Source: Escherichia coli (GTDB lineage: Bacteria > Pseudomonadota > Gammaproteobacteria > Enterobacterales > Enterobacteriaceae). Taken from it: DNA of 64,000 nucleotides. The position numbers were made by a program, and so were the translations under genes. This document shows positions 1-41,191 of the stretch, piece after piece; the first letter of the stretch is position 1; each line of letters starts with the position of its first letter. The notes under the pieces were generated by a model, which made no database searches, was not told where the DNA came from, and saw only the letters and a list, made by a program, of their open reading frames with translations. The stretch lies in assembly GCF_036507355.1 (NCBI RefSeq), contig NZ_AP027877.1. The stretch is one strand, 5' to 3'.

Positions 1-537
1 CCAGATATCGACCTTACATCCGGCTTCGCTCAAAATATCGTAGTAAGCATGAACGCCTGCCAGCGGCTCACGCCCGCGATCCGGGTAGTTTTGTTCCCAG
101 GCAACTTCGCGCATGAGCACATGGGTCGGCTCCAGCCAGTTATCTGGCATCTGTACTGCCAGCACGCCCTGCGGATTAAGTAAAGAAACCAAGTGAGGAA
201 ACAATTCGTAGTGGTCGGGCAGCCATTGCAGTGAGGCATTAGCAAAAATCAGATCGAGTGTCTGTTCCGGTTGCCAATTGCGGATATCTGCTTCCACAAA
301 CTGGCAGTCCGGCAAAGCACTGCGTGCTTCGGCAACCATCGCCGGAGATGAGTCGATGCCCGTTATCCTGGCAGCAGGCCAACGTTGTTGTAGAAGGGCG
401 GTGCTGTTACCTGGGCCACAGCCAAGATCGGCAACATATTCGACATTCTCCAGCGGCACTCTGGCAAGCAGCTCCACCGCCGGACGCGATCGTTCAGCGG
501 CAAAGTGCAGATATAAAGAGGGGTTCCAGTCAGACAT
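1..537 (-). CDS. tam: trans-aconitate 2-methyltransferase; start codon at 535-537, 3' end runs off the window edge
   Basis: Reverse-strand translation from 537 reads [27 protein letters not shown]..., matching Tam; methyltransferase LGCGPGN motif present. Confidence 0.85.
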
Positions 538-593
538 TTTTTTACTCCCGTCAGCGCGTTACCCCAATTGTAGATAAAATTGATAAATTCGCC

Positions 594-884
594 TCACGGC
601 ATCAACCCATTGAACAGACGTTTTTTACGCGGCCCGGTCATTAAAGATTCCAGTTTCGCGACACAGGTTTTGTAGTGGGGCGTGGTTTTATGGAACGCCA
701 CTGCGTCTTCATCTTTATAGGCTTCGTAGATATAAAAGCGCGAATTCACTTCCGGGTCCTGTAAGACATCGAAGCGCAAATTGCCTTCTTCCTGTACAGA
801 GCCCAGGTGGTTCTGGCGAAAAACTTCGATAAACTCGTCAACCTTGTCTTCATGAACGTTAATTTCAACCAGTGTGACGTGCAT
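594..884 (-). CDS. lsrG: autoinducer-2 degradation protein LsrG (96 aa)
   Basis: 96-aa [21 protein letters not shown]..., length and sequence match LsrG; sits directly downstream of lsrF. Confidence 0.9.
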
Positions 885-907
885 AATTCTTCTCCTTAAA
901 TCCGCAG

Positions 908-1783
908 TTACTGTTTTTCACTCAGATAGAGTTCATATGCCCGATCAGCCGTTTCGTTATGGTGAACCACCGCCTGTACGGCTTTCATCATCGCCACCGG
1001 ATGGTCAGACTGGAAAATATTACGCCCCATATCCACACCAGAAGCGCCCTGATCGATAGCCTGCCAGCACATTTCCAGCGCCTCGCGCTCCGGTAATTTC
1101 TTACCGCCAGCAATAACAATGGGTACCGGACATCCGGCAACAATCCGTTCAAAACCTTTTTCGACATAATAGGTTTTGATAATTTGCGCCCCCATTTCAG
1201 CGGCGATTCGAGTCGCGAGCGAGAAATAACGCTGATCGCGCACCATATCTTTGCCCACGCCAGTCACGGCCATGGTCGGCATTCCCACTTTCATTCCGGC
1301 ATCGACCAGCTGAATAATATTTTTGATCGACTGATGTTCATATTCGCTGCCGATATAAACCTGCGCCGCCACCGCGCAACTGTTCAGGCGCACGGCGTCA
1401 TCCATCGATAACGCCACGGCTTCATTACTTAATTCCGCCAGAATAGAGTTCGCACCTGACGCCCGCAGTACCACCGGCTTATTGGTCGCCGGGGGAACTA
1501 CGCTGCGCAAAATGCCGCGCGTACACATTAATACATCGGCATGTTCAAACAGCGGGGCGATATTTATATCAATGCGTTCAAGTCCGGTAGTCGGCCCCTG
1601 AAAATAACCATGGTCAAAGGCCAGCATCACGGTTTTACCCGTTTTCGGATTAAATATCCGCGATAAGCGTGACTGCATTCCCCAATCCAGTGCACCGCAA
1701 CCTTTCAGGGTAAAAGGGATATTTTGTTGCGATTGATCGGTACGAAAATCTTTACCATCTTTAATATCGTCTAAATCTGCCAT
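908..1783 (-). CDS. lsrF: LsrF, class I aldolase-family thiolase for phospho-AI-2 (291 aa)
   Basis: 291-aa [31 protein letters not shown]...; length and operon position match LsrF. Confidence 0.9.
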
Positions 1784-1809
1784 AACTTACTCCGGTTAAG
1801 TAATGCACA

Positions 1810-2832
1810 TCAGAAATCGTATTTGCCGATATTCTCTTTGTTGAATATCACGCGCTCCGGTAACAGTACGATGCCATTACCATCCGCTTCGTAGTCATAG
1901 CCCTGAACGCTGTTTGGCGAGACTTCCACCTGACCTACGCCCTGAATATCCAGCATGTCGCCCGTTTTCATTGATCCTTTTTTCAATAATGCATCCGCGA
2001 CATAAACTGATATTTTGCCTTGCTGAACCACATCCCACAGGCCAAATTCTTTCACCGTGCCGCGTTCCACATATGGACGCATCACGTTTGGCGTACTGAA
2101 TCCGACAATCGCAACTTTGTCATTTTTCAGGTTTTCTGCGGCTTGTGCGGCAGCGGGCAGGGCATTGGCATCGGGGGCGATAATGGCGTCGAGATCGCTA
2201 TACGCTTTTAATATTCCTTCTGCGGTTTGTAATGATTTAGTGGCATCGTTATAGCCAAACTGCGTAGTGACAATTTCCCAGCCAGGATGCTCTTTGGCGA
2301 TTTTCGCTTTCGCTTCTTTCACCCACTGGTTTTGGTCCGTAACGGTGGGGCTTGAGTAGAAAAACGCGACTTTGGCTTTGTCTTTATTCACCTGACGCGC
2401 CGCCATATCCACCAACATACCTCCCAACTGGGCGGGCGTTCCCTGATTAATGTAGTAAGAGCGGCACTCCGGTTTAGTATCAGAGTCCCAGGTCAGCACT
2501 CTCACACCACGTTGCATGGCGCGTTTCAGTGCCGGACACAAGCCATCAGGCGAAACCGCAGAAACGATAATGGCGTTATAACCTTGATTGACGAAGTTAT
2601 TAATCAACTGTACCTGACCAGAAACACTGGGTTCTGTCGGCCCGTCGTAGGTCACATCAACGCCCAGCTCTTTACCCGCTTGTTGTGCGCCGTTGCCACC
2701 GCTGGTAAAAAATCCCACGCCAACCAGTTTGGGAATAAATGCAATACGCTCTGCGGCCTGCACATTCATAGAGATTGCGGCAATGCCAAGAGCGCTAAGT
2801 AAGGCGATTTTCTTAAAGCGATGAAGTGTCAT
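1810..2832 (-). CDS. lsrB: periplasmic AI-2 binding protein LsrB (340 aa)
   Basis: 340-aa ORF with signal peptide ([26 protein letters not shown]), periplasmic sugar-binding fold; lsr operon context. Confidence 0.9.
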
Positions 2833-2843
2833 GAAGATATCCT

Positions 2844-3601
2844 TTATGGCAATGGGTTATTGGCCCGACGCGCCAGCCACTCTTTAATTTGCTGGCGATG
2901 CAGGCTAACGGAACGACCTACGACAACGACGATAAGTAGCGCACCGGAAAGGGCGCTGGACACCTGATTTGGCACTCCTGCCATTTGCAAACCTTGTTGC
3001 AAATATCCCACTAATAAAACCGCAATGGCGGTGCCGATAATGGAACCGGAACCACCATAAATATTGGCACCGCCAAGCACCACGGCGGTGATGGCGGGCA
3101 TCAGAAACGACGCACCGAGATCGGAACGTGCTGAACCAAAATACGACACCAGCAGCACAGCGGCGACCGCAGACGCCAGCCCCGTCATGGCATAGAGCGC
3201 ACATAAGGTACGGTTAACTGGAATCGCGCTATAAAGCGCCACGCGCGGGCTTTGCCCAATCAAAAACACGTTACGTCCGGCATGGGTTTTATGCAGCCAG
3301 AGCCAGAAAACGAGGAGACATATCAGGAAGATAATCAGCGGAACGGGGAGCCCCAACACATCCAGGTTAGCGAAATCTGTAAACGCCATCGGGAATCCAC
3401 CAATACCTTCGTACCCCGTCGCTCCGACCATCCCGGAAAGCAGCAGGGCGCTTCCGGCAAACAGATACAGCGTGCCAAGCGTAATCACCAGCGGGTTAAC
3501 TTTGGTATAGATAATTAATCCGGCGTTGATCAGCCCGCACAATGCGCCGAGCAGTAAGGTCAGGAGAATCGCCAGCGGCATCGGCACACCACTTTGAAAC
3601 A
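2844..3601 (-). pseudogene. lsrD: lsrD 3' fragment (C-terminal ~250 codons of the AI-2 ABC permease), cut off from its 5' end by the transposon
   Basis: ORF 2844..3587 is a polytopic permease C-terminus. Together with 9242..9481 it sums to 993 nt (330 codons plus stop) once the 5-bp duplication is counted once. Confidence 0.85.
3597..3601. repeat. 5-bp target-site duplication AAACA (left copy)
   Basis: Identical AAACA immediately outside both terminal inverted repeats (3597-3601 and 9242-9246). Confidence 0.8.
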
Positions 3602-3639
3602 GGGGGAACCGCAGAATTCGGAAAAAATCGTACGCTAAG
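3602..3639. repeat. left 38-bp terminal inverted repeat of the transposon
   Basis: GGGGGAACCGCAGAATTCGGAAAAAATCGTACGCTAAG; 35/38 match to the reverse complement of 9204-9241. Confidence 0.85.
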
Positions 3640-3790
3640 CTAACGGTGTTCTCGTGACAGCTCTTTGACTAGGCTTTCTAAGGCCATTCTGATAGCCCTG
3701 ACTTCCTGAAAAGCCATGGCTAAAATTTGTGCGGCTAAAAGGGATAACCGATGGTAAAGTAAGTTATCCCTGTCGAGATACTGAAAAGCG

Positions 3791-5368
3791 TTATCCTCGT
3801 TTTTCCCAAAACTGTTTTGCCAGTTCGCTCAGAGCGCTAGTTAACTGAGCGACAGATTTCGCACTTTGCAAATTATTCTGCCCGGTCTGTACATTGGTAT
3901 CAGCAGCATCGCGTATATTGATAATACTGCGGTTTATGTCTTCACTTACTGCTCCCTGCTGCTCGACCGCAGTCGCTATTTGCGCGTTCATGTCGGTAAT
4001 TTCGTTAACGCGTTGGCCAATTCCATCAAGAGCTGTAGCTGCTTCCTCTGCGTGAGCTACACTCGTGTGCGCTTGCCGACTACTTTGCTCCATGACTGTA
4101 ACAGCGGATTGCGCTCGCTCTTGTAGAGCGCTGATCATGCTTTGAATATCCGTTGTCGATTGCTGTGTGCGAGCAGCAAGACTGCGAACCTCATCGGCGA
4201 CAACAGCAAAACCACGCCCCTGCTCACCAGCACGCGCGGCCTCAATTGCTGCGTTGAGTGCCAACAAATTCGTTTGCTCGGCGATCCCTCGTATAACGTC
4301 AAGAACTTTTGATATCTCGTTACTTTGACCTTCAAGCTCATGAATAACCTGAGTGGCTTGCCTAATTTCACCTTCAAGGGCAGTGATTGACTGGCTTGTG
4401 TGGGCTACCAGACGCTGGCCAGATGCCGTCTCAGTGTCTGCTCTTCCGGCCGCATCTGCAGCATGCTGTGCATTGCTCGCAACCTCTTGAATGCTTGCCA
4501 CCATTTGGTTTACTGCCGTTGCTATTTGATCTGTCTCTGCCTGCTGCTCAACTGTAAGTACATTGCTTGACTCAATATCCTTTAGTAGGCCTCGGGTGTG
4601 TTCGCTAAGCCGATTTGATGCATCACCTATGCGACCTACTATGGCGCCTGTTTCAGCTTGCATCATTCGTAAAGCAAACTCTATTTGGCCAAACTCATCG
4701 GTGCGCCCAGTGTAGAGGGATTGACTTAATGGGTTATTGGAAATATTCTTGGCTCTTTCAACCAGTCTTCCAAGAGGAGAGAGAATAGCCAAAACACTAA
4801 CAGAGCTTAAGCTTCCTGACATTAAAGTGGCTAACAATAAGCTGCTTATTGATGTATCAGTAAGCATGCCGGCAGCCATTGCGCTTGATATAATACTACC
4901 CCATATGAGCAAGAGTATTTTCACGGAAAAGCTAGCAGCCAATTTCGGCCTCGCGGCCTTCCCGCTTCTCAATTGAGCATATAATTTTTCCGCAGCCAAA
5001 ACCTGCTCAGGTTCAGGCTTGGTCCTTACAGACTGGTATTCAACAATCGAACCATTCTTAGCTATTGGCGTTACATAAGCACTTACCCAATAGTGGTCGC
5101 CATTTTTACAGCGATTTTTTACTAGCCCCATCCATGAGCGGCCAGATTTTAATGTACTCCACATATGCTCAAATGCAGCAGGCGGCATATCTGGGTGTCT
5201 TACGATGTTGTGAGGCTGGCCTAATAGTTCTTCCTCAGTGAAACCACTGATTTTAATGAAGTCAGGATTAACGTACGTGATATGGCTTTGAGGGGAGGTA
5301 GTCGAAAGAATATTGGCATCTTTTGGGAGTTCTAAGTTTCGACCCGTCACTGGTAAATTCTGGCGCAT
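3791..5368 (-). CDS. methyl-accepting chemotaxis protein with N-terminal PAS domain (525 aa), transposon cargo
   Basis: PAS-like N-terminus ([10 protein letters not shown]...[12 protein letters not shown]), hydrophobic segment, conserved MCP signalling core ([38 protein letters not shown]). Confidence 0.8.
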
Positions 5369-5677
5369 AAGAACCTCAAGGGTTGGCTGTTTTATTTTAT
5401 TGTTTTCGGCATTAAGCCCAATTTCTTGAGCGTTACGATAAAGCTAGCATGGAAACGATAGGTGCAAGCAAGTTAAGGGTTGCATCGCGCATGTCAATCT
5501 AGGCTATACCCTAACTTGATGTCAGGCAGGGCCGCGCCGCTTCGTCAGAATAGAGTCTGCTTTCCCATTTTTTGACACATGCCCGCGAAGGTTATAGATT
5601 TCAGCCTGACAGAAATGGGCTTTGAGGCACAACGGAACAGAAAGTGCACTTAAGCCGCCTTCAACCAAGGAGACATC
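5369..5677. promoter_or_regulatory. putative res (resolution) site and divergent promoter region between chemoreceptor gene and tnpR
   Basis: Intergenic position typical of res in Tn21/Tn1721-type elements; inverted repeats TGTCAGGC / GCCTGACA near 5520 and 5605. Subsites not mapped. Confidence 0.4.
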
Positions 5678-6238
5678 GTGCAGGGGCACCGCATCGGCTA
5701 CGTCCGGGTCAGCAGCTTTGACCAGAACCCGGAACGCCAGCTGGAACAAACCCAGGTGAGCAAGGTGTTCACCGACAAGGCATCGGGCAAGGACACCCAG
5801 CGCCCCCAGCTCGAAGCGCTGCTGAGCTTCGTCCGCGAAGGCGATACAGTGGTGGTGCACAGCATGGATCGGCTGGCCCGCAACCTCGATGACCTGCGTC
5901 GCTTGGTACAGAAGCTGACTCAGCGCGGCGTGCGCATCGAGTTCCTGAAGGAGGGCCTGGTGTTCACTGGCGAGGACTCGCCGATGGCCAACCTGATGCT
6001 GTCGGTGATGGGGGCCTTCGCTGAGTTCGAGCGCGCCCTGATCCGCGAGCGGCAGCGTGAGGGCATCGCCTTGGCCAAGCAGCGTGGCGCGTACCGGGGC
6101 CGCAAGAAAGCCCTGTCCGATGAGCAGGCTGCTACCCTGCGGCAGCGAGCGACGGCCGGCGAGCCCAAGGCGCAGCTTGCCCGCGAGTTCAACATCAGCC
6201 GGGAAACCCTCTACCAGTACCTCCGCACGGACGACTGA
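5678..6238 (+). CDS. tnpR: serine recombinase, Tn3-family resolvase TnpR (186 aa)
   Basis: Resolvase N-terminal catalytic motif (GYVRVSSFDQNPERQ), C-terminal HTH; close to Tn21/Tn1721 TnpR. Confidence 0.9.
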   Translation: MQGHRIGYVRVSSFDQNPERQLEQTQVSKVFTDKASGKDTQRPQLEALLSFVREGDTVVVHSMDRLARNLDDLRRLVQKLTQRGVRIEFLKEGLVFTGEDSPMANLMLSVMGAFAEFERALIRERQREGIALAKQRGAYRGRKKALSDEQAATLRQRATAGEPKAQLAREFNISRETLYQYLRTDD

Positions 6239-6241
6239 CAC

Positions 6242-9208
6242 ATGCCGCGTCGCTTGATCCTCTCGGCCACGGAGCGGGACACCCTGCTTGCGCTGCCGGA
6301 AAGCCAGGATGACCTGATCCGCTACTACACCTTCAACGACTCCGACCTGTCGCTGATCCGCCAGCGACGCGGCGACGCCAACCGCCTCGGCTTCGCCGTG
6401 CAGCTCTGCCTGCTGCGCTACCCCGGTTACGCGCTGGGAACCGACAGCGAGCTGCCCGAGCCGGTCATCCTGTGGGTGGCGAAGCAAGTCCAGGCCGAGC
6501 CGGCGAGCTGGGCAAAGTACGGCGAGCGCGACGTGACCCGTCGCGAGCATGCCCAGGAACTGCGCACCTACCTGCAACTGGCCCCGTTCGGCCTGTCCGA
6601 CTTCCGCGCCCTGGTGCGCGAGCTAACCGAGCTGGCCCAGCAGACCGACAAAGGCTTGCTGCTGGCCGGTCAGGCCCTGGAGAGCCTACGGCAGAAACGA
6701 CGCATCCTGCCGGCGCTGAGCGTGATTGACCGGGCCTGCTCGGAAGCCATTGCGCGAGCCAATCGGCGGGTCTACCGCGCCCTGGTCGAACCACTCACGG
6801 ACTCGCATCGGGCCAAGCTGGACGAGCTGTTGAAGCTCAAGGCCGGCAGCAGCATCACCTGGTTGACCTGGCTGCGCCAGGCACCGCTGAAACCCAACTC
6901 TCGGCACATGCTGGAACACATCGAGCGGCTGAAGACATTTCAGTTGGTGGACTTGCCCGAAGGCCTGGGCCGGCACATCCACCAGAACCGCCTGCTCAAG
7001 CTGGCCCGCGAGGGTGGGCAGATGACGCCCAAAGACCTCGGTAAGTTCGAGCCGCAGCGCCGCTACGCGACCCTGGCCGCCGTGGTGCTGGAGAGCACCG
7101 CGACCGTGATCGATGAGCTGGTCGATCTGCATGACCGCATCCTGGTCAAGCTGTTCAGCGGCGCGAAGCACAAGCATCAGCAGCAGTTCCAGAAGCAGGG
7201 CAAGGCGATCAACGACAAGGTGCGCCTGTACTCCAGGATCGGCCAGGCGCTGCTGGAAGCGAAGGAAAGCGGCAGCGACCCCTATGCCGCCATCGAGGCG
7301 GTGATTCCCTGGGACGAGTTCACCGAGAGCGTCAGCGAGGCCGAGCTGCTGGCCCGGCCGGAAGGCTTCGACCACCTGCACCTGGTCGGCGAGAACTTCG
7401 CCACCCTGCGCCGTTACACGCCGGCCTTGCTGGAGGTGCTGGAACTGCGCGCCGCGCCGGCCGCGCAAGGCGTGCTGGCAGCCGTGCAGACCCTGCGTGA
7501 GATGAACGCCGACAACCTGCGCAAGGTGCCGGCCGATGCACCCACGGCCTTCATCAAGCCGCGCTGGAAGCCGCTGGTGATCACCCCGGAAGGCCTCGAC
7601 CGGAAATTCTACGAAATCTGCGCCCTGTCCGAGCTGAAGAACGCCCTGCGCTCCGGCGACATCTGGGTCAAGGGCTCGCGGCAGTTCCGCGACTTCGACG
7701 ACTACCTGCTGCCGGCCGAGAAGTTCGCCGCACTCAAGCGCGAGCAGGCCCTGCCCCTGGCGATCAACCCGAACAGCGACCAGTACCTGGAAGAGCGTTT
7801 GCAGCTGCTGGACGAGCAGTTGGCCACCGTCACCCGCCTGGCCAAGGACAACGAGCTGCCCGATGCCATCCTCACCGAGTCAGGGCTGAAAATCACCCCG
7901 CTGGATGCGGCGGTGCCGGATCGGGCGCAGGCGCTGATCGACCAAACCAGCCAGTTACTGCCGCGCATCAAGATCACCGAACTGCTGATGGACGTGGACG
8001 ACTGGACGGGCTTCAGCCGCCACTTCACCCACTTGAAGGACGGGGCCGAGGCCAAAGACAGGACGTTGCTGCTGTCCGCAATCCTCGGTGATGCGATCAA
8101 CCTCGGGCTGACCAAGATGGCCGAGTCGAGCCCCGGCCTGACCTACGCCAAGCTGTCCTGGCTGCAAGCCTGGCACATCCGCGACGAAACCTATTCGGCG
8201 GCCTTGGCCGAGCTGGTCAACCACCAGTATCGCCACGCCTTTGCCGCCCACTGGGGCGACGGCACGACCTCATCCTCCGATGGCCAGCGCTTCCGCGCGG
8301 GTGGCCGGGGCGAGAGCACCGGGCACGTCAACCCGAAGTACGGTAGCGAGCCGGGACGGCTGTTCTATACCCATATCTCCGACCAGTACGCGCCGTTCAG
8401 CACCCGCGTGGTGAATGTCGGCGTCCGCGATTCCACCTATGTGCTCGACGGCCTGCTGTACCACGAGTCCGACCTGCGGATCGAGGAGCACTACACCGAC
8501 ACGGCCGGCTTCACCGATCACGTCTTTGCCCTGATGCACCTGCTAGGCTTCCGCTTCGCGCCGCGCATCCGCGACCTCGGCGAAACCAAGCTGTACGTGC
8601 CGCAGGGCGTGCAAGCCTACCCGACGTTGCGCCCGCTGATCGGCGGCACCCTGAACATCAAGCACGTGCGTGCCCACTGGGACGACATCCTGCGCCTGGC
8701 CAGCTCGATCAAGCAGGGCACCGTCACCGCCTCGCTGATGCTGCGCAAGCTCGGCAGCTACCCGCGCCAGAACGGACTGGCCGTGGCCCTGCGCGAGCTG
8801 GGCCGGATCGAGCGCACGCTGTTCATCCTGGACTGGCTGCAAAGTGTTGAACTGCGCCGCCGCGTGCATGCCGGCCTGAACAAAGGTGAGGCGCGCAACT
8901 CGCTGGCCAGGGCGGTGTTCTTCAACCGCCTTGGGGAAATCAGGGATCGGAGCTTCGAGCAGCAGCGCTACCGGGCCAGCGGCCTCAACCTGGTGACGGC
9001 GGCTATCGTGCTGTGGAACACGGTGTACCTGGAACGCGCCACCCAGGGGTTGGTCGAGGCCGGCAAGCCGGTGGACGGCGAGCTGCTGCAATTCCTGTCG
9101 CCGCTGGGCTGGGAGCACATCAACCTAACCGGCGATTACGTCTGGCGGCAGAGCCGCAGACTGGAAGACGGGAAGTTTCGGCCCTTACGGATGCCCGGAA
9201 AACCTTAG
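6242..9208 (+). CDS. tnpA: Tn3-family transposase TnpA (988 aa)
   Basis: 988-aa ORF, typical Tn3/Tn21 transposase length; 3' end runs into the right inverted repeat, as is usual in this family. Confidence 0.9.
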
Positions 9209-9241
9209 CGTACGATTTTTTCCGAATTCTGCGGGCTCCCC
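9204..9241. repeat. right 38-bp terminal inverted repeat of the transposon
   Basis: CTTAGCGTACGATTTTTTCCGAATTCTGCGGGCTCCCC; reverse complement matches the Tn1721-type IR. Confidence 0.85.
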
Positions 9242-9246
9242 AAACA
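9242..9246. repeat. 5-bp target-site duplication AAACA (right copy)
   Basis: Same pentamer as 3597-3601, directly abutting the right IR. Confidence 0.8.
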
Positions 9247-9481
9247 GTACGCCCAATGCAATGGCGCAGAGGCCGATGGTCGAACCAAACGAAATATCGA
9301 TCCCGCCACTGACAATCACCATCGTCAGCGGTAGGGCGACAATGCCAATGCAGATAAAGTCACTGGTGCTGAACAGCAACATATTGAGATCTAACATCCG
9401 CGGGTTAATTGCACCAAATGCGACAATCTCAATAACGAGCAGTGCGGCAAGAGCCAGTTCCCAACCGTAGCGAATACGCAT
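9242..9481 (-). pseudogene. lsrD: lsrD 5' fragment (N-terminal ~80 codons)
   Basis: Reverse-strand ORF begins [30 protein letters not shown]..., then reads into the transposon IR. Confidence 0.85.
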
Positions 9482-10509
9482 TATGCGGCCTCCCGTTTTT
9501 TACCTGACGAAGCGGGTTTAACGGATGGCGGTGGCGTCATAAAGCGGGCATATTTTTGCCGCCGTAGATTACGTTCCAGCGCACAACGCAGGCGTCCATC
9601 AAACACCAGCACCACCAGTAGCACGAGGCCCGCGATAAAATCGTTCCACCATGCCGGAATGCGCAACAGCACCAGTACGCTATCGATCTGCGTCAGGAAC
9701 CATGCGCCGAGTACCGCACCGATGATCGCACCGGAACCGCTGAGCAAACTAATGCCGCCCAGCACGCAGGCTGCAATTGCTTTCATCTCCAGCCCGGTAC
9801 CGGTCTGGTTGGGGATAAAACCAATCTGCGAAGCAAACACAATTCCCGCCAGTGCCGCCATGCAGCCGTTCAACGAAAATGCCACAATGCGAATGGCTTC
9901 CGTACGAACGCCCAGTTGACGAGCGCCCTGTAAATTATCGCCCGTGGCATAAAAACTGCGTCCAAACGCCGTCTTCGCCAGCAGCCAGGCCATAAATGCC
10001 ACCAGAATTATTGTTAACCAACCAATTGCTGAAACGCCAAGCAGCAGCGGGGCGGAGAGCTGTTTCAGTTCGGCGGGTAACCCCTCAATCCATTTACCGC
10101 CAGTCCACAGCAACATGATGCCTCTGTACAACCCTAACGTGCCAAGGGTGGCAACAATGGCAGGGATTTTTAGCCACGCGACCAGGACACCGTTGAAAAA
10201 TCCTGCGAGCAAACCAAGCAGTAAAGTCGCGACACAAGCAACAGGTAGTGAATACCCCGCGTTCAGTAACATCCCCAACAGCACCGCGCACATTCCGGTA
10301 ATCGAACCCACTGAAACATCAATATTGCGCGTAAGCATTACCAGCGTCGCGCCCATTGCCAGCAGGATCAGGATTTGCGCGCTGCTATAAACCATGGTCA
10401 GCGTTTGCACACTTAAATACTGGCGGTCGAGAAAACCGGGTAATACAAACAGCAGCACCACCGCCAGCAGTGCCGTGATTTCACGGTTGTTCTGAATAAA
10501 CTTCAGCAT
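9481..10509 (-). CDS. lsrC: AI-2 ABC transporter permease LsrC (342 aa)
   Basis: 342-aa polytopic membrane ORF between lsrA and lsrD; length matches LsrC. Confidence 0.9.
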
Positions 10510-12038
10510 GACGCCTCCTGACGCTGACTATCGCCGAAGGCAACGCGCATAATAGTCTCGACATTAATATCGCGCCCGGTCAGTGCAGAGTGGGTAATTT
10601 CGCCCTGATGCATCACATACACACGATCTGCCATCAGTTCGATCTCTTCCAGGTCGGAGGAGATAAGCAGCACAGCCACATTTTGTGCGGCGATGCTGCG
10701 TAACAGCTGGTAGATATCATTACGGGCCGAGACATCCACGCCGCGCGTCGGCTCATCGACTATCAATACTTGCGGCGAGGCTTCCAGGCATTTGGCAATC
10801 AGGATTTTTTGCTGGTTGCCACCGGATAATGTCCGTGCAGCTTGTTCCGGTTGGTTAAATTTAATATTCAGCGCCCGACGATATCGTTCCAGGGTGGCAT
10901 TATCTTTCGCGGTTTTCGCCCAGAATCCACGAAGGTTATGAGTAAGGGCGCAGACGTTCCAGGCCAGCGAAGCATCGAGATTCAGTCCGGAGGACTGGCG
11001 ATCTTCCGGCAGATAAACGAGACCGCGCAGTAAACGTTCTCCAGTGGAGAATCTATTGATCTCTTTATCATTCAGCATAATGCGTCCGCCACGCAAAGTA
11101 CGTAGACCATAGAGCGTCTCGGCCAGTTCTGTGCGTCCGGCACCCACCAGCCCAGCCAGACCCAGAATTTCTCCGGCATTTAGCGTCAGGCTGACATTCC
11201 TGAAACCTTCGCCAGTCAGATTTTTCAGTGTCAGCACCGACGTTCCTGCGGCATGTTGTGGGCGGTTACCAGGTAACTCCAGCCATAATTTTTGGCTGGC
11301 AGAGAGCGATTTTTCCCGTACCACTGGCGTGATGGCCTGAATAATGTCGTCGGTAGACAGTTCGCTGGTTTTGCCGCTTAAGGCGATGGTTCCGTCGCGC
11401 ATCACGCTAATTCGATCGGCAATCTGGCGAATTTCCGGCAGCTTATGCGAGATAAAAACAATACCCACGCCAGTAGCAAGCAGCTCTTGCAAGCGACTAA
11501 ACAAGCGTTCGGTTTCCGCAGGGGTAAGCGAGGCGGTAGGTTCATCGAGGATCAGAATCCGCGAGTCGCGCATCAGCCCGCGGAGGATTTCCACCATTTG
11601 GCGATCGGCGACATCCAGCGATCCTGCCAGACTATGCAGATCAAACTGGCAGCCCAGCGCCGCCAGCAAGTTCTTCATTTTCTGCATGGAGAGCTGTTTT
11701 TTTGCCAGCCCAAACAGGATGTTTTCTTTTATCGACAGGCTTGGGAAAAGCAGCGGTTCCTGGGGAACGAGATAAATACCCAGCTGATGAGCATGAACTG
11801 GCGTTAATCTGGCGTAGTTGTTGCCCCCAATCTCCAGCGTACCGCTATCAGCAGGGGTAATACCGGCAATAATCTTCATTAACGTCGATTTACCGGCACC
11901 ATTGCCGCCGAGCAGGGCGTGGACCTCCCCCTGATGCAACGTAAAATCGATGCCTTTCAGGACATTGACCCCTGAATACTGTTTATAAACCGAGCGGGCG
12001 CAAAGTAGCGGTAACGCGCGGGTATCACTCGTTTGCAT
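10503..12038 (-). CDS. lsrA: AI-2 ABC transporter ATP-binding protein LsrA (511 aa, two nucleotide-binding domains)
   Basis: Two Walker A motifs ([18 protein letters not shown]) and ABC signature motifs; 7-bp overlap with lsrC. Confidence 0.9.
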
Positions 12039-12286
12039 ATTTCCCCCGTTCAGTTTTGCAGGTGAGTTTTGAACAAATGTATTTCTGCTTTTAATTTGTT
12101 CATAACCTTAGGTGGACATTGCACATATTTCCGACGAATAGATCACAATTTATGCTATTTTGATTTTCGCGGTTGCGTTTGTTCATGCTCGTAGAGTCAA
12201 ACTGTGGTTGCCATCACAGATATAAATGCGCAAGAACTGAACAATTGCATTAAAGATTTAAATATGTTCAAAGTGAAGAATGAATT
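12039..12286. promoter_or_regulatory. divergent lsrA / lsrR promoter region
   Basis: 248-bp AT-rich intergenic region between divergent lsrA and lsrR; inverted repeat TGAACAAAT-N15-ATTTGTTCA at 12070-12102 is a candidate operator. Confidence 0.55.
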
Positions 12287-13240
12287 ATGACAATCAACGA
12301 TTCGGTAATTTCAGAACAGGGAATGTGTGAAGAAGAACAGGTCGCGCGGATCGCGTGGTTTTACTACCACGACGGGCTGACCCAGAGTGAGATCAGCGAT
12401 CGTCTCGGCCTGACCCGTTTGAAAGTGTCGCGATTACTGGAGAAAGGGCATCAGTCCGGCATCATTCGCGTGCAGATTAATTCTCGCTTTGAAGGCTGTC
12501 TGGAATATGAAACACAATTACGTCGTCAGTTTTCGCTGCAACATGTCCGGGTGATCCCTGGGCTTGCGGATGCTGATGTCGGCGGGCGACTGGGGATAGG
12601 CGCGGCGCATATGTTGATGAGTTTACTTCAACCACAACAGATGCTGGCGATTGGTTTTGGCGAGGCAACCATGAATTCGCTGCAACGCTTAAGTGGTTTT
12701 ATTTCGTCACAGCAAATTCGCCTGGTCACGCTCTCCGGTGGCGTCGGTTCCTATATGACGGGTATCGGGCAGCTTAACGCGGCGTGCAGTGTGAATATTA
12801 TTCCGGCTCCGTTGCGGGCATCCTCCGCTGACATTGCCCGTACGCTAAAAAATGAAAATTGCGTCAAAGATGTTCTGTTAGCCGCGCAAGCAGCGGATGT
12901 GGCGATTGTCGGCATTGGGGCCGTGAGTCAACAAGACGACGCGACGATCATTCGCTCCGGTTATATCAGCCAGGGCGAACAGTTAATGATTGGCCGAAAA
13001 GGGGCGGTTGGCGACATTTTAGGCTACTTTTTTGATGCAAAAGGTGACGTTGTCACGGATATTAAAATACATAACGAACTGATTGGCTTACCTTTAAGCG
13101 CGCTGAAGACCATACCCGTCCGGGTTGGCGTGGCAGGGGGAGAAAATAAAGCCGAAGCAATTGCCGCTGCAATGAAAGGCGGTTATATCAACGCACTGGT
13201 TACCGATCAGGACACAGCAGCGGCGATTTTACGTAGTTAA
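12287..13240 (+). CDS. lsrR: lsr operon repressor LsrR (317 aa, SorC/DeoR-type)
   Basis: 317-aa [54 protein letters not shown]...; HTH followed by sugar-phosphate-binding domain. Confidence 0.9.
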
Positions 13241-13318
13241 ATTTGCATGACCTTATTACCGGGAATGATGGAGAACGTATAGAGGAACAGACAGAACGCA
13301 TAAGCCGAGGATAATCTA

Positions 13319-14848
13319 ATGGCTCGACTCTTTACCCCTTCAGAATCAAAGTATTACCTGATGGCGCTGGATGCAGGCACCGGAAGTATTCGGGCTGTGA
13401 TATTCGACCTGGAAGGCAATCAAATAGCAGTGGGACAGGCGGAGTGGCGGCATCTGGCAGTACCGGACGTTCCTGGTTCTATGGAATTTGATCTCAACAA
13501 AAACTGGCAACTGGCGTGTGAGTGTATGCGCCAGGCGCTGCACAACGCCGGCATAGCCCCGGAGTATATCGCTGCCGTTTCGGCATGTTCGATGCGTGAA
13601 GGCATTGTTTTATATAACAATGAAGGAACACCGATCTGGGCCTGCGCCAATGTGGATGCCAGAGCGGCGCGCGAAGTTAGCGAACTTAAAGAACTGCACA
13701 ACAATACCTTTGAAAACGAAGTTTATCGCGCGACCGGACAAACGCTGGCTTTAAGTGCCATCCCCAGATTACTTTGGCTGGCCTATATGCTCAGCGGCGA
13801 ACTTGCGGTGGATCCCTCTAACGCTGGCACCACGGGACTTCTTGATCTAACCATCCGTGACTGGAAACCTGCATTGCTGGATATGGCTGGCCTGCGTGCC
13901 GATATTCTTTCTCCTGTCAAAGAAACCGGCACATTGCTGGGCGTGGTAAGTTCACAAGCGGCGGAACTCTGCGGTCTGAAGGCGGGCACTCCGGTGGTCG
14001 TTGGAGGAGGCGACGTGCAGCTTGGTTGCCTGGGGTTAGGCGTTGTGCGTCCGGCACAAACCGCGGTTCTTGGCGGCACATTCTGGCAGCAAGTTGTAAA
14101 TTTAGCCGCGCCGGTGACAGACCCAGAAATGAACGTGCGCGTTAATCCTCATGTTATTCCTGGCATGGTACAAGCTGAATCTATAAGCTTTTTTACCGGA
14201 CTCACCATGCGCTGGTTCCGCGATGCTTTCTGTGCCGAAGAAAAACTGATTGCCGAACGTTTAGGCATCGACACCTATACGCTGCTGGAAGAGATGGCCA
14301 GTCGGGTGCCGCCTGGGTCGTGGGGCGTAATGCCGATCTTCTCCGACAGAATGCGCTTTAAAACCTGGTATCACGCTGCGCCTTCCTTTATTAACTTGTC
14401 CATTGACCCGGATAAATGTAACAAAGCGACATTGTTCCGTGCGCTGGAAGAAAATGCGGCGATTGTATCAGCGTGTAACTTGCAGCAAATTGCTGATTTC
14501 TCGAATATTCATCCTTCATCGTTAGTCTTTGCAGGCGGAGGTTCAAAAGGGAAATTATGGAGTCAAATTCTCGCTGATGTCTCGGGATTACCCGTCAATA
14601 TTCCGGTAGTCAAAGAAGCCACCGCATTAGGATGTGCCATTGCAGCTGGCGTCGGTGCCGGAATTTTTTCATCAATGGCAGAAAACGGAGAACGCCTGGT
14701 TCGCTGGGAACGGACGCACACACCAGACCCAGAAAAGCATGAACTTTATCAGGATTCACGCGATAAGTGGCAGGCAGTTTATCAGGATCAGCTGGGGCTG
14801 GTTGATCATGGACTGACGACGTCGTTATGGAAAGCGCCTGGGTTATAG
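13319..14848 (+). CDS. lsrK: autoinducer-2 kinase LsrK (FGGY carbohydrate kinase), 509 aa here
   Basis: FGGY-kinase N-terminus ([13 protein letters not shown]), lsrRK context; in-frame stop immediately upstream of the ATG at 13319. Shorter than the ~530 aa I recall for K-12. Confidence 0.85.
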
Positions 14849-15060
14849 TTTCATTGACAGCCACATCATGATGACCGTGGCTGTTAGTTTTTGAGTATAG
14901 TTATTCTTATTTCCCTTCTTTTAGAGCTGGCTTGTTAAATGCCAGCTTGCAGATTCATCGTTCCATCACCAGTACTATATTCAAGGGAAAATTGCTATTT
15001 TTCTTGGTGATGCTGCCAACTTACTGATTTAGTGTATGATGGTGTTTTTGAGGTGCTCCA

Positions 15061-15336
15061 GTGGCTTCTGTTTCTATCAGCTGTCCCTCCTGTTCAGCTA
15101 CTGACGGGGTGGTGCGTAACGGCAAAAGCACCGCCGGACATCAGCGCTATCTCTGCTCTCACTGCCGTAAAACATGGCAACTGCAGTTCACTTACACCGC
15201 TTCTCAACCCGGTACGCACCAGAAAATCATTGATATGGCCATGAATGGCGTTGGATGCCGGGCAACAGCCCGCATTATGGGCGTTGGCCTCAACACGATT
15301 TTACGTCACTTAAAAAACTCAGGCCGCAGTCGGTAA
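15061..15336 (+). CDS. insA: IS1 InsA (91 aa)
   Basis: [43 protein letters not shown]... zinc-finger/HTH InsA. Confidence 0.95.
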
Positions 15337-15758
15337 CCTCGCGCATACAGCCGGGCAGTGACGTCATCGTCTGCGCGGAAATGGACGAACAGTGGGGCTA
15401 TGTCGGGGCTAAATCGCGCCAGCGCTGGCTGTTTTACGCGTATGACAGGCTCCGGAAGACGGTTGTTGCGCACGTATTCGGTGAACGCACGATGGCGACG
15501 CTGGGGCGTCTTATGAGCCTGCTGTCACCCTTTGACGTGGTGATATGGATGACGGATGGCTGGCCGCTGTATGAATCCCGCCTGAAGGGAAAGCTGCACG
15601 TAATCAGCAAGCGATATACGCAGCGAATTGAGCGGCATAACCTGAATCTGAGGCAGCACCTGGCACGGCTGGGACGGAAGTCGCTGTCGTTCTCAAAATC
15701 GGTGGAGCTGCATGACAAAGTCATCGGGCATTATCTGAACATAAAACACTATCAATAA
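15255..15758 (+). CDS. insB: IS1 InsB reading frame (167 aa; the transposase InsAB' is made by -1 frameshift at the A-run near 15310)
   Basis: Canonical InsB sequence; TTAAAAAAC slippery run in the insA/insB overlap. Confidence 0.9.
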
Positions 15759-15773
15759 GTTGGAGTCATTACC

Positions 15774-17755
15774 GGAATTTCCTCGGAACGGGCGAAGCTT
15801 TCCGCTATATCTATATCGGTGATGCTGGCGATGGTGAACTTAATGTCTCGAGTGAAGGCAAAGTAGATTCGGGAATTATCACTGCGGGGATGAAAGAAAC
15901 AGGCACAGGCAACATTACTGTTAAGGATAAGAACTCCGTTATCACTAATCTCGGAACTAATCTTGGTTATGACGGCCACGGCAAAATGAATATCAGTAAT
16001 GAGGGGCTTGTTGTCAGCAACGGAGGAAGCTCTCTCGGTTATGGAGAAACCGGCGTCGGGAAGGTTAGCATCACCACGGGGGGGATATGGGAGGTCAATA
16101 AGAATGTCTATACCACCATTGGTGTTGCGGGCGTCGGAAACCTCAATATTAGCGATGGCGGTAAGTTCGTATCGCAAAATATTACTTTTTTGGGCGATAA
16201 AGCAAGCGGTATCGGCACTCTGAACCTGATGGATGCGACATCATCGTTCGATACTGTGGGTATCAATGTCGGTAATTTTGGTAGCGGTATCGTAAATGTC
16301 AGTAATGGTGCCACCCTTAATTCAACGGGCTATGGATTTATCGGAGGAAATACCTCCGGTAAGGGGATAGTTAATATTTCAACGGATAGTCTCTGGAATT
16401 TAAAGACATCATCTACTAACGCCCAATTGCTACAGGTCGGTGTATTAGGCACGGGTGAACTGAATATTACCACCGGAGGTATAGTTAAAGCGCGTGATAC
16501 ACAGATAGCTCTCAATGACAAAAGTAAGGGCGACGTGAGGGTGGATGGGCAGAACTCTCTTCTTGAAACATTCAATATGTACGTAGGGACATCTGGTACG
16601 GGTACGTTAACCCTGACGAATAGCGGCACGCTGAATGTCGAAGGTGGAGAAGTTTACTTAGGTGTTTTTGAACCTGCTGTAGGAACGCTAAACATTGGTG
16701 CAGCTCACGGTGAGGCGGCGGCAGATGCCGGGTATATAACCAACGCGACGAAAGTAGAGTTTGGTTCTGGCGAAGGTGTTTTTGTCTTTAATCATACTAA
16801 TAACAGTGATGCCGGCTACCAGGTCGATATGCTGATTACAGGTGACGATAAAGACGGAAAAGTGATCCATGATGCAGGCCATACGGTGTTCAATGCAGGG
16901 AATACTTATAGCGGTAAAACGCTGGTCAATGACGGCATCCTGACCATTGCGTCTCATACGGCAGATGGGGTAACGGGCATGGGTTCGAGTGAAGTAACCA
17001 TTGCAAGCCCCGGTACGCTCGACATTCTCGCATCAACGAACAGTGCAGGAGATTACACGCTGACCAATGCGCTCAAAGGCGATGGCTTGATGCGAGTGCA
17101 GCTGTCATCCTCCGACAAGATGTTTGGCTTTACCCATGCAACAGGGACTGAATTCGCCGGTGTTGCCCAAGTGAAAGACAGTACCTTCACTCTGGAACGC
17201 GACAACACCGCTGCGCTTACTCACGCGATGTTGCAGTCTGACAGTGAAAATACCACATCGGTAAAAGTTGGAGAGCAATCCATTGGTGGACTGGCCATGA
17301 ATGGAGGTACCCTCATTTTCGATATCCAGGTCTTTCAGTGGTTGATTGGCGCAACGGATGGCCATGCAAAAAACTTCTCCGTATTTATTCAGGCTGGCGG
17401 CAGTTATCGACTCACGCCATTTTACGACATCATTTCAGCATTTCCGGTATTGGGTGGCGCGGGAATACACATCAGCGATCTCAAACTGGCAATGGGGCTT
17501 AACGCATCCAAAGGCAAAAAAACGGCAATCGATAAAATTTATCCGCGACATTTTTTGGCGACAGCAAAGGTGCTGAGATTCCCGGAAGTGCAGATGCATG
17601 AAATCCTGAGTGACTTTGCCAGAATGATTCCGGCAGCACTGGATAACGTGAAGACTTCATTACCGACAGATTTTCCAGAGAACGTGGTGACGGCAGTTGA
17701 AACCAATGTGTTGAGGTTGCACGGTCGGTTAAGCCGAGAATACGGTATTAAGTAA
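15774..17755 (+). pseudogene. chimeric remnant: AIDA-like autotransporter passenger fragment (ydeK/yneO-like, 5' end removed by IS1, no beta-barrel domain) fused in frame to the 3' end of hipA
   Basis: N-terminal ~480 codons are Gly/Thr/Asn/Ser-rich beta-helix repeats; the last ~142 codons are the HipA C-terminus. Confidence 0.7.
17327..17755 (+). pseudogene. hipA: hipA 3' fragment (C-terminal ~142 codons of the HipA kinase toxin, including the catalytic loop); hipB and the hipA 5' part are absent
   Basis: QVFQWLIGATDGHAKNFSVFIQAGGSYRLTPFYDIISAFPVLGG...RLHGRLSREYGIK matches the HipA C-terminus; the N-terminal domain and ATP-binding region are not upstream. Confidence 0.75.
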
Positions 17756-18008
17756 GAGTAAGATATGGGGTTTGGTCGTTGTTAATGAGCAGGACAATCA
17801 TGACCGCCAACGACTAGATTCTTCCTTGGTTTATGTTGGTGCGCATAATGTATATTATGTTAAATCACCTACTGTGGTAAATAAGTTCATATGACACTCC
17901 CACTAACTGATAAATCAATACGTTAGGATTTCTGATCTCCCTCTCGTTTCTTGCATTAGGTACAGAGTACATTCTCTTCATATCCATGATAATTTTGAGG
18001 TAAATATT

Positions 18009-30890: not shown

Positions 30891-32048
30891 ATGCACGTTA
30901 CAGCCAAGCCCTCCAGTTTTCAATGTAATCTCAAATGTGATTACTGTTTTTACCTTGAAAAAGAGTCGCAGTTTACTCATGAAAAATGGATGGATGACAG
31001 CACTCTGAAAGAGTTCATCAAACAATATATCGCAGCGTCTGGCAATCAGGTCTATTTTACCTGGCAAGGCGGTGAACCCACTCTGGCTGGCCTGGATTTT
31101 TTCCGTAAAGTTATTCACTATCAACAACGCTATGCAGGCCAAAAACGTATTTTTAATGCATTACAAACGAATGGCATTTTATTGAATAATGAATGGTGTG
31201 CCTTTCTCAAAGAACATGAGTTTCTGGTTGGTATCTCGATCGATGGACCCCAGGAGCTACATGACCGTTACAGACGCAGTAATTCAGGTAATGGTACTTT
31301 TGCAAAAGTGATAGCAGCCATCGAGCGTCTGAAATCATATCAAGTAGAGTTTAATACGTTAACCGTCATTAATAACGTTAATGTCCATTACCCTCTTGAG
31401 GTTTATCATTTTTTAAAATCTATCGGCAGTAAACATATGCAATTTATCGAATTGCTAGAAACCGGGACGCCGAATATTGATTTCAGTGGTCATAGTGAGA
31501 ACACATTCCGTATCATTGATTTTTCTGTGCCTCCCACGGCTTATGGCAATTTTATGTCAACCATTTTTATGCAATGGGTTAAAAACGATGTGGGTGAAGT
31601 TTTCATCCGTCAGTTTGAAAGCTTTGTCAGCCGTTTTTTGGGGAATGGGCATACCAGTTGTATTTTCCAGGAGTCCTGCAAGGATAATCTGGTTGTTGAA
31701 AGTAATGGAGACATTTACGAATGCGACCATTTTGTCTATCCACAGTACAAAATTGGAAACATTAATAAATCTGAACTCAAAACGATGAACAGTGTACAAC
31801 TGACAGCGCAAAAAAAACGGATTTCAGCGAAATGTCTGAAATGTGCATATAAACCTATCTGCAATGGCGGTTGTCCTAAGCATCGTATTACTAAAGTAAA
31901 CAATGAGACTGTTTCTTATTTTTGCGAAGGTTATAAAATCCTTTTTTCAACCATGGTACCTTATATGAACGCCATGGTAGAGTTAGCTAAGAACAGAGTA
32001 CCGCTTTACCACATTATGGATGTTGCAAAACAAATGGAGAATAATTAA
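30891..32048 (+). CDS. ydeM: radical-SAM anaerobic sulfatase-maturating enzyme homologue YdeM
   Basis: CxxxCxxC radical-SAM motif (CNLKCDYC) near the N-terminus, C-terminal Cys cluster; ATG at 30891 preferred over the upstream TTG. Confidence 0.85.
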
Positions 32049-32338
32049 TAACACGCCCTCTTAGCTCCAGTCTTAGCCTCCGTCTTATGACCTTAACAAA
32101 GCACCCGACATAAATTCCTGTCGGGTTTGTCGTCATCATCATCTTCCCTTGCGAAAATCCTGGCATACGTGGTATGCGTCAGGGCATTAGCAATACCCTT
32201 GATTATCAATAGCATAACCATAACCACTGAAAATTAAAAATTTCTATATATTTCATATTGTTAAATGATACTTAAATAAATTTCATCAGTAAATCATTGC
32301 CATAGATAATCATTGGATGGCACAATCAATTTTCGCTA

Positions 32339-41036: not shown

Positions 41037-41191
41037 TAACGTTTAACGGTAACGGTGTCCCGAAACGAACCCGTTTCGGGACAATTTCCAAAGTCTGTTC
41101 ACTGGCATTAGCAACGGAAAATATTGTTCTGAATACGCTTCAGAACAAAACAGGTGCGGTTCCGACAGGAATACCGTTTTAGGGGGATAAT

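Follow-up and report, generated by a model that had tools for sequence, protein, structure and literature searches.

A complete Tn1722 in Escherichia coli lsrD is a mosaic of a GC-poor passenger module and a GC-rich transposition module

Positions 3602-9241 of the 64-kb stretch of Escherichia coli DNA analysed here (the window) are a complete copy of Tn1722 (5,640 bp), known as the 'minor transposon' of Tn1721 in the Tn3 family, and this element is a two-module mosaic rather than one homogeneous foreign island, because its left composition boundary falls at the res site and the start of tnpR and not at the left inverted repeat. We consider it highly probable that an apparently intact Tn1722 transposed replicatively into lsrD, and that the joining of two modules accounts for its bimodal composition. 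As a mobile element, Tn1722 in lsrD is ordinary and already described, and both its mosaic make-up and the swapping of arms through res agree with existing knowledge of the Tn21 subgroup.

Identity of the element and its insertion into lsrD

An earlier note on this DNA had described a tnpR-tnpA transposon with inverted-repeat ends at 3602 and 9241, and such an element is indeed present. Its 38-bp terminal repeats, IRL (3602-3639, plus strand; GGGGGAACCGCAGAATTCGGAAAAAATCGTACGCTAAG) and IRR (9204-9241, minus strand, overlapping the tnpA stop codon), are complementary at 35 of 38 positions (92%, three mismatches), and the repeat occurs only twice in the window, where no copy would be expected by chance. 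The IRL 38-mer has been given as a Tn1721-type inverted repeat (PMC13085002). The passenger gene mcp (orfI; 3791-5368, minus strand) is GC-poor and encodes a 525-aa PAS-HAMP-MCP receptor of the aerotaxis type (Pfam MCPsignal, 6.9e-44; PAS_3, 2.1e-17; HAMP, 1.1e-10). It is followed by tnpR (5678-6238, plus strand), for a 186-aa serine resolvase (Pfam Resolvase, PF00239, 2.9e-39; HTH_7, 5.8e-14), and tnpA (6242-9208, plus strand), for a 988-aa Tn3-family DDE transposase (Pfam DDE_Tnp_Tn3, PF01526, 3.4e-155; DUF4158) that scores 1289 bits against NCBIfam transpos_Tn3 (NF033527; cut-off 500). These two genes are co-directional and in the same frame, with a conserved intergenic block upstream of tnpR.

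PGAP labels the database copies of the element only 'TnAs1 family', and our assignment to Tn1722 is based on these copies together with a primer and a description from the literature. The gene order IR-mcp-res-tnpR-tnpA-IR and the 5-bp repeats of Tn1722 have both been described (PMC7096625 and PMC6906374, respectively), the published Tn1722 primer matches exactly at 9157-9176 within tnpA, and in database comparison the whole 5,640 bp is 100% identical to hundreds of copies on enterobacterial plasmids. The closest known system is thus Tn1722/Tn1721 of the Tn3 family, Tn21 subgroup (Allmeier et al., 1992; GenBank X61367), with which the element shares the 5.6-kb length class, the 38-bp inverted repeats, the 5-bp duplication and the gene order. 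No difference from Tn1722 was detected within the element, and only the insertion site in lsrD is particular to this genome. A complete Tn1721 was ruled out, as the window holds only two inverted repeats and no tet(A) was seen either within the element or next to it; with two repeats and no tet(A) arm, this is the minor transposon.

The interrupted gene, lsrD, encodes the permease of the AI-2 ABC transporter and lies on the minus strand, with its 3' part at 2844-3601 and its 5' part at 9242-9481. The sequence shows identical copies of the target-site duplication AAACA on both sides of the element, at 3597-3601 and 9242-9246. Joining 2844-3601 to 9247-9481 restores a 330-aa LsrD; counting the stop, 329 of the 331 positions compared agree with LsrD of strain GZ2408P. 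The identical insertion junction was absent from all 5,426 complete E. coli genomes searched; four genomes whose matches spanned 80% or more of the query of lsr genes plus transposon were considered as carriers of the same insertion and rejected, since all have different sites. The suggestion in the earlier note that the acquisition was recent is supported by the perfect duplication, by the recovery of LsrD on excision, by the 100% identity to plasmid copies and by this absence of the junction elsewhere. LsrD is cut after about 80 codons, an interruption predicted to abolish AI-2 import and likely to be polar on lsrB, lsrF and lsrG.

Composition, the res junction and the origin of the modules

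Maximum-likelihood binary segmentation of positions 1-16000 placed steps in GC content at 5653/5654 and 9198/9199, enclosing a segment (5654-9198) of 65.9% GC, which is far beyond the range of all 3,545-bp windows in the rest of the 64 kb (mean 48.3%, sd 3.9%, maximum 54.7%). This two-step model gains 136.4 log-likelihood units over a model without a step. The right step lies no more than 43 bp from the right inverted repeat, and the left step about 2.05 kb inside the transposon. By segment, GC content is 50.9% at 1-3601, 46.9% at 3602-5500, 65.0% at 5501-9241 and 51.3% at 9242-15000, and the window without the transposon has 48.4%. The genes follow the same division, with 65.6% GC in tnpR, 65.9% in tnpA and 47.5% in mcp, and third-position values (GC3) of 86%, 88% and 41%, respectively, beside 50-60% in the lsr genes. 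The earlier note, which had placed a GC-rich island between abrupt steps at 3602 and 9241, was therefore right that the tnp genes are far more GC-rich than their lsr flanks (66% versus 51%; GC3 86-88% versus 50-60%), that a strongly GC-rich segment exists and that its right edge (9198) is near IRR, but its left coordinate was wrong, 5653/5654 rather than 3602. There is no rise at 3602; GC content drops there. The composition change does not coincide with the inverted-repeat boundaries, because the 1.9 kb of IRL and mcp, at 46.9% GC, is GC-poorer than the host flank.

Homology to related elements breaks at 5506, about 150 bp to the left of the step at 5653, because the res/promoter region has a GC content of only 50%, and composition alone therefore lacks the power to pinpoint the module junction. 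The homology breakpoints are sharper. Many database records are identical to the element over its positions 1900-5640 only (5501-9241 in the window; 100% identity) and carry other left arms, one of them with intI1 and a Tn21-type urf2; Pseudomonas relatives (91-95% identity) begin at the same point with other cargo, and further records hold the IRL-mcp arm only. In a Tn21-type integron hybrid homology starts at 5506, and in an mcp-only element it stops at 5507. Within 5470-5640 the best palindrome centre is also 5506-5507 (9 of 14 positions match), and from the breakpoints and this imperfect palindrome, centred on AT, we place the probable res site I, and with it the module junction, at 5492-5521. 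Of the three resolvase-binding subsites (res I-III) that footprinting defined in Tn1721, only a palindrome resembling site I, together with conserved blocks, was seen upstream of tnpR; strand exchange is stated to occur at the centre of site I (PMC13367494).

Because independent hybrids break homology exactly at the centre of site I, these comparisons of sequence suggest that the modules were exchanged by resolvase. The transposition module comprises the right half of res, tnpR and tnpA up to IRR (5506-9241), with a coding part of 66% GC and GC3 near 87%, a composition that points to a long stay in a GC-rich gene pool. The other, passenger module (3602-5505; 47% GC, GC3 41%) begins with IRL, contains the Aer-type PAS-HAMP-MCP gene and ends with the left half of res. 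They join at the dinucleotide where strands would cross over in the probable res site I, and where recombination of res with res between elements of the Tn21 subgroup could swap whole arms. Hybrid transposons of this kind, with a Tn21/Tn1696-type left arm and a Tn1721-type tnp module, share the tnp module from 5506 to IRR at 100% and break, as here, at the centre of res site I; they differ in carrying an integron/urf2 (mer-type) arm where the present element has IRL and mcp.

Perhaps the boundary arose instead by ordinary insertion or capture of mcp beside an ancestral IRL, through one-ended transposition or illegitimate recombination. The action of the resolvase is, after all, deduced, and the order of events is unreadable from a single sequence; still, the breaks of two independent hybrids share a 2-bp interval in the middle of the palindrome of the putative site I. 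Such precision is expected of site-specific recombination but not of illegitimate capture, and we regard this alternative as improbable.

The earlier note favoured a higher-GC host, a reading that runs two time scales together and is plausible for the deep ancestry of the tnp module only, and unproven; an enterobacterial plasmid is the most likely immediate source, because the copy is identical to those on plasmids of E. coli, Klebsiella and Salmonella. The 91-95% identical relatives of the tnp module are found on Pseudomonas plasmids at the same 66% GC, and the deep ancestry of this module plausibly lies in higher-GC bacteria. In Pseudomonas, Marinomonas, Vibrio and others there are homologues of mcp with 60-81% identity, some of which are labelled as aerotaxis receptors; the nearest two non-transposon relatives examined (76-81% identical) are on metagenome contigs of 52-55% GC and identified no source.

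It is also conceivable, although we think it somewhat less probable again than the capture of mcp, that the high GC content of tnpR-tnpA is no relic of a GC-rich host and has been kept by selection on expression level or on mRNA or DNA structure for transposition. Values of 66% GC and GC3 near 88% are equal in plasmid copies from E. coli, Klebsiella and Pseudomonas, and so stable across hosts. However, the enterobacterial copies are mutually identical, which leaves no time for amelioration, and this stability therefore says little; moreover, it is the third codon positions that carry the excess (GC3 86-88% versus 41-42% at second positions, GC2), a pattern of mutational bias and not of selection at the protein level.

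Very unlikely, in our judgement, is a single homogeneous high-GC island spanning 3602-9241, bounded by the inverted repeats and received directly from a higher-GC host. Its overall GC content (58.9%, with about 51% in the flanks) and its right edge, which matches IRR, would agree with such an origin. But 3602-5500 (46.9% GC) and mcp (GC3 41%) both fall below the flanks, and steps at 3601/3602 and 9241/9242 gain only 44.7 log-likelihood units, a fit 92 units worse than that of the two-step model, which refutes the left boundary. The 100% identity to enterobacterial plasmid copies further implies that the last donor need not have been GC-rich.

The two-module element shares with the GC islands commonly used as markers of horizontal transfer an abrupt shift in GC and GC3, atypical codon usage, a mobile element and shadow open reading frames. 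It departs from them in that the GC-rich part makes up just two thirds of what was transferred, the last third being host-like or lower. Since this GC-poor third lies inside the acquired DNA, GC content alone misplaces the boundary, and GC-based island detection would put the left edge of the acquired DNA 2 kb off. Nothing explicit on GC heterogeneity in Tn1721 was found in the literature searched.

Antisense open reading frames in tnpR and tnpA

Three long open frames on the minus strand of the GC-rich segment are artefacts of GC-rich coding DNA, as the earlier note had supposed in calling them spurious: they have no Pfam match, end at rare sense codons and, in a 95.7%-identical relative, are neither conserved nor open throughout. 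The first (5522-6577; 351 aa) covers res, tnpR and the 5' end of tnpA and is a codon-register antisense frame closed by the sense codon CTA at 6623. The second (6686-7468; 260 aa, in an open frame at 6689-7879) is bounded by CTA at 6686 and TCA at 7880, and the third (8543-9118; 191 aa) by CTA codons at 8543 and 9125. Their length follows from coding sequence rich in GC3, because an in-register antisense stop needs a sense TTA, CTA or TCA codon, and among the 1,176 codons of tnpR and tnpA only 8 are of this kind. Relative to a 95.7%-identical Pseudomonas relative, codon changes are 131 synonymous and 16 non-synonymous in the sense frame and 25 and 122 in the antisense frame, where stops are not conserved; in that relative one stop, at the equivalent of 7144, interrupts the second frame and another, at the equivalent of 8830, lies inside the third. 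That at least one of the three is a real overlapping gene is an exceedingly slim prospect: the frames do reach 191-351 aa, one being longer than the tnpR beneath it, but the missing Pfam matches, the ends fixed by sense TTA/CTA/TCA codons, the excess of non-synonymous change and the stops within two of them in the relative all argue against it.

All three frames exist within 5522-9118, and none falls in the mcp part of the transposon. The further claim that such frames appear only inside the element is true of the two long frames (366 and 397 codons from stop to stop) and not of shadow frames of 150-207 codons, which occur elsewhere in the window (for example at 29931-30551, 39870-40451 and 40455-41042). 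GC-based island detection would also be liable to spurious gene calls on the strand opposite tnpR and tnpA.

Tn1722/Tn1721 insertions between TerC and dif

The lsrD insertion lies 8.6 kb from an exact match at 17838-17865 (plus strand; none expected by chance) to the 28-bp sequence of dif, the chromosome dimer resolution site. The Ter core of TerC is absent from the 64-kb window; in strain T16R TerC is situated between uxaB and yneE, and site mapping puts it roughly 1.3 kb past the left end of the window. At least 15 independent natural chromosomal insertion sites of Tn1722/Tn1721 in E. coli fall between TerC and 12 kb beyond dif, in a cluster of about 31 kb that begins 64 bp beside the TerC core and to which the lsrD insertion belongs. 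Perfect 5-bp duplications flank the element on both sides at 13 of these sites, and IRL points towards TerC in 14 of 15 insertions. A flip of orientation at dif, suggested by a reversed copy of the T16R type, was ruled out, as the ydeT and ydeO sites to the right of dif have the common orientation; the reversed copy is located in a separate integrase-bearing island.

Three laboratory insertions of mini-Tn1721 near terC have been reported (Tang et al., 2024; PMC11417375). The present case resembles this terminus-directed transposition of Tn3-family elements (mini-Tn1721, PMC11417375; Tn917 in Firmicutes) in the copy between TerC and dif, in the QLxxLR clamp-binding (DnaN-binding) motif of TnpA (residues 54-59, QLCLLR in the translation) and in the natural sites, at least 15, in the same zone; the cluster in natural isolates and the 14/15 orientation are absent from the text of that paper. 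We lean, by a small margin, towards the view that natural Tn1722/Tn1721 insertions mark an oriented hot spot on the side of TerC where forks are arrested, in which the transposase would capture the Tus-arrested clockwise fork, or clamps left behind by it, with fixed polarity. If true, what the three laboratory insertions showed would apply to natural populations too, with a rule of polarity added. Oriented clustering between TerC and dif would then offer population-scale support for the targeting of replication termination by Tn3-family transposases, a consequence that could outweigh the element itself.

Tn1722 inserted in lsrD

The element at 3602-9241 is bounded by 38-bp terminal inverted repeats (3602-3639 and 9204-9241), complementary at 35 of 38 positions, and just outside these the 5-bp sequence AAACA is repeated perfectly in direct orientation, at 3597-3601 and 9242-9246. 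It holds three real genes: mcp on the minus strand, encoding a PAS-HAMP-MCP receptor of 525 aa (3791-5368), and, on the plus strand, tnpR for a serine resolvase of 186 aa (5678-6238) and tnpA for a Tn3-type DDE transposase of 988 aa (6242-9208; NCBIfam transpos_Tn3, with a score of 1289 bits where the cut-off is 500). When the element and one copy of the repeat are deleted, 2844-3601 joins 9247-9481 in a frame for 330 aa; counting the stop, 329 of the 331 positions compared with LsrD of another E. coli are the same. The element therefore lies inside lsrD, in the operon lsrACDBFG.

Judged by published descriptions and database copies, the element is Tn1722. Its gene order equals the published IR-mcp-res-tnpR-tnpA-IR (PMC7096625), 5-bp repeats are produced by Tn1722 and a Tn1722 primer from the same study matches exactly at 9157-9176 (PMC6906374), and the full 5,640 bp recurs in single-piece matches of 100% identity in many plasmids of E. 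coli, Salmonella, Klebsiella, Enterobacter and others. Just two inverted repeats occur in the window; this is therefore the minor transposon Tn1722, and the full Tn1721 is rejected.

The insertion is recent, as the earlier note had proposed: the two AAACA copies show no difference, plasmids carry the element in identical form, and a search of 5,426 complete E. coli genomes found its lsrD junction in none. The most likely immediate donor is therefore an enterobacterial plasmid.

Natural insertions between TerC and dif

The dif site lies at 17838-17865, 8.6 kb from the element. Other genomes carry Tn1722 or full Tn1721 in the same neighbourhood but at different sites. On the map of E. coli strain T16R, our reference (TerC core 1686-1695, dif 20083), insertion points to the left of dif lie at 1759, 2285, 3023, 3373, 3491, 6579 (the window element), 12071, 12465, 13119, 14918, 16586 and 18763, and three to its right lie at about +3.3 kb, +10.5 kb and +12 kb. 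There are thus at least 15 independent natural sites from TerC to 12 kb beyond dif (database loci L001, L008-L010, L015, L016, L020 and L025-L031), in a sample short of a full census and partly biased, because queries that included lsr genes led to several of the sites. The TerC core and the closest site are 64 bp apart. Matching 5-bp duplications flank 13 of the 15, and 14 share one orientation, with the left inverted repeat (IRL) towards TerC; the one reversed copy sits inside a separate integrase-bearing island. In E. coli F8 (L027, transposon at 11941-17580) the 5-bp flanks are unequal, ACTTA versus TATTA, perhaps because two copies recombined or because point mutations arose.

Sampling matches to the mcp arm at even spacing yielded ten full-length chromosomal copies, three of them within the ~31-kb TerC-dif zone. 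A further four, at three distinct sites, lie some 100-200 kb from dif, as judged by the genes on either side of them and the K-12 map. The two clearly distant copies, in KMi012 near tnaC-mnmE (L021) and in J6 near nanS-fim (L022), are both inside IS1, which suggests that they came by IS1-mediated events and not by direct Tn3-type transposition into the chromosome. A second Tn3-family transposon is also present in the TerC-dif zone: in E. coli Z1323CEC0010 (L024, 5284-17494), a Tn5393-type element with a Tn3-family transposase, a resolvase and strA-strB lies between lsrF and lsrG, with Tn1722 nested within it.

In the laboratory, three mini-Tn1721 insertions were found within ~25 kb of terC, and the QLxxLR motif of TnpA has been shown to bind the beta clamp (Tang et al., 2024; PMC11417375). 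This motif is present in the window TnpA at residues 54-59. The natural TerC-dif cluster agrees with those insertions and extends them; its size and polarity are not stated in the text of that paper (PMC11417375).

Base composition and antisense reading frames

The earlier note had described 3602-9241 as a GC-rich island with abrupt steps at both inverted repeats. A GC-rich island is indeed real, and far beyond chance, although its left edge was misplaced. Likelihood segmentation of 1-16000 finds exactly two steps, at 5653/5654 and 9198/9199, enclosing 65.9% GC, against a mean of 48.3% (sd 3.9%, maximum 54.7%) for 3.5-kb windows elsewhere in the window. Relative to no step, these two steps raise the log-likelihood by 136.4 units, and steps placed at the inverted repeats raise it by only 44.7. 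The right step falls within 43 bp of the right inverted repeat (IRR), whereas the left step is 2 kb within the element, and GC drops rather than rises at 3602: it is 50.9% in 1-3601, 46.9% in 3602-5500, 65.0% in 5501-9241 and 51.3% in 9242-15000. GC3 follows the same division, at 86% in tnpR and 88% in tnpA, 41% in mcp and 50-60% in the lsr genes. Elsewhere, a low-GC stretch at ~27000-33000 (38-43% in 2-kb windows) is probably the ydeQRST fimbrial/ydeP-safA-ydeO region, as placed by comparison with annotated genomes.

Three antisense ORFs, dismissed in the earlier note as spurious, exist as described, all within the GC-rich module, and are shadow ORFs. They occupy the frame in register with the sense codons, in which stops come only from TTA, CTA or TCA codons in the sense frame. 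Such codons number none in tnpR and eight in tnpA (8.1 per 1,000 codons; at 6623, 6686, 7880, 7955, 8270, 8543, 9125 and 9185), against 26-48 per 1,000 in mcp and the lsr genes, and the ends of the open antisense stretches coincide exactly with those eight tnpA positions. A Pfam search of the three ORFs gave no match. A Pseudomonas copy with 95.7% identity differs by 131 synonymous and 16 non-synonymous codon changes when read in the sense frame, and by 25 and 122, respectively, when read in the antisense frame; in that copy, stops interrupt two of the three ORFs. The view that long antisense ORFs occur only inside the island holds for the two longest; shorter shadows of 150-207 codons are also found elsewhere in the window.

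Two modules and a junction at a probable res site

The two parts of the element travel separately among database copies. Many records match only element positions ~1900-5640 (window ~5501-9241), at 100% identity, and carry other left arms, such as the intI1 and Tn21-type urf2 gene of a Klebsiella plasmid; Pseudomonas plasmids hold tnp modules 91-95% identical, with the same start point and unrelated adjoining cargo; and further records hold the IRL-mcp arm alone. At the junction, the integron hybrid is homologous from 5506 and an mcp-only element up to 5507. The best imperfect palindrome upstream of tnpR (9 of 14 arm positions) is centred on the AT at 5506-5507 and looks like a candidate resolvase site I, the centre of which is a known place of strand exchange (PMC13367494). 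We infer that Tn1722 is a res-recombinant, in which a GC-rich transposition module (the right half of res, tnpR, tnpA and IRR) would have combined with a passenger module poor in GC (IRL, mcp and the left half of res). The res/promoter DNA, at only 50% GC, explains why the GC step at 5653 lies ~150 bp to the right of this junction.

Acquisition from a higher-GC host, as the earlier note had it, is plausible only for the distant ancestry of the tnp module, which in its Pseudomonas relatives has 66% GC and 88% GC3, the same as here. The mcp gene is a member of an Aer-type receptor family, with relatives 60-81% identical in Pseudomonas, Marinomonas, Vibrio and others. On a P. aeruginosa plasmid (L004; NZ_OP378668.1, ~5002-7054), a ~2-kb element combines a Tn1721-like IRL, a 98.9% identical mcp, and a res-like site whose left half equals that of Tn1722; ~130 bp further on comes an IR-like end of another kind (28 of 38 positions). 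Its ends leave no space for tnpR or tnpA. This layout suggests a non-autonomous IR-mcp-res-IR element that may be related, or ancestral, to Tn1722's GC-poor arm.

In every feature the element fits Tn1722 and what is known of how Tn21-subgroup transposons behave; to that extent it is already known. What the present analysis adds is a corrected compositional boundary and an explanation of the mosaic.
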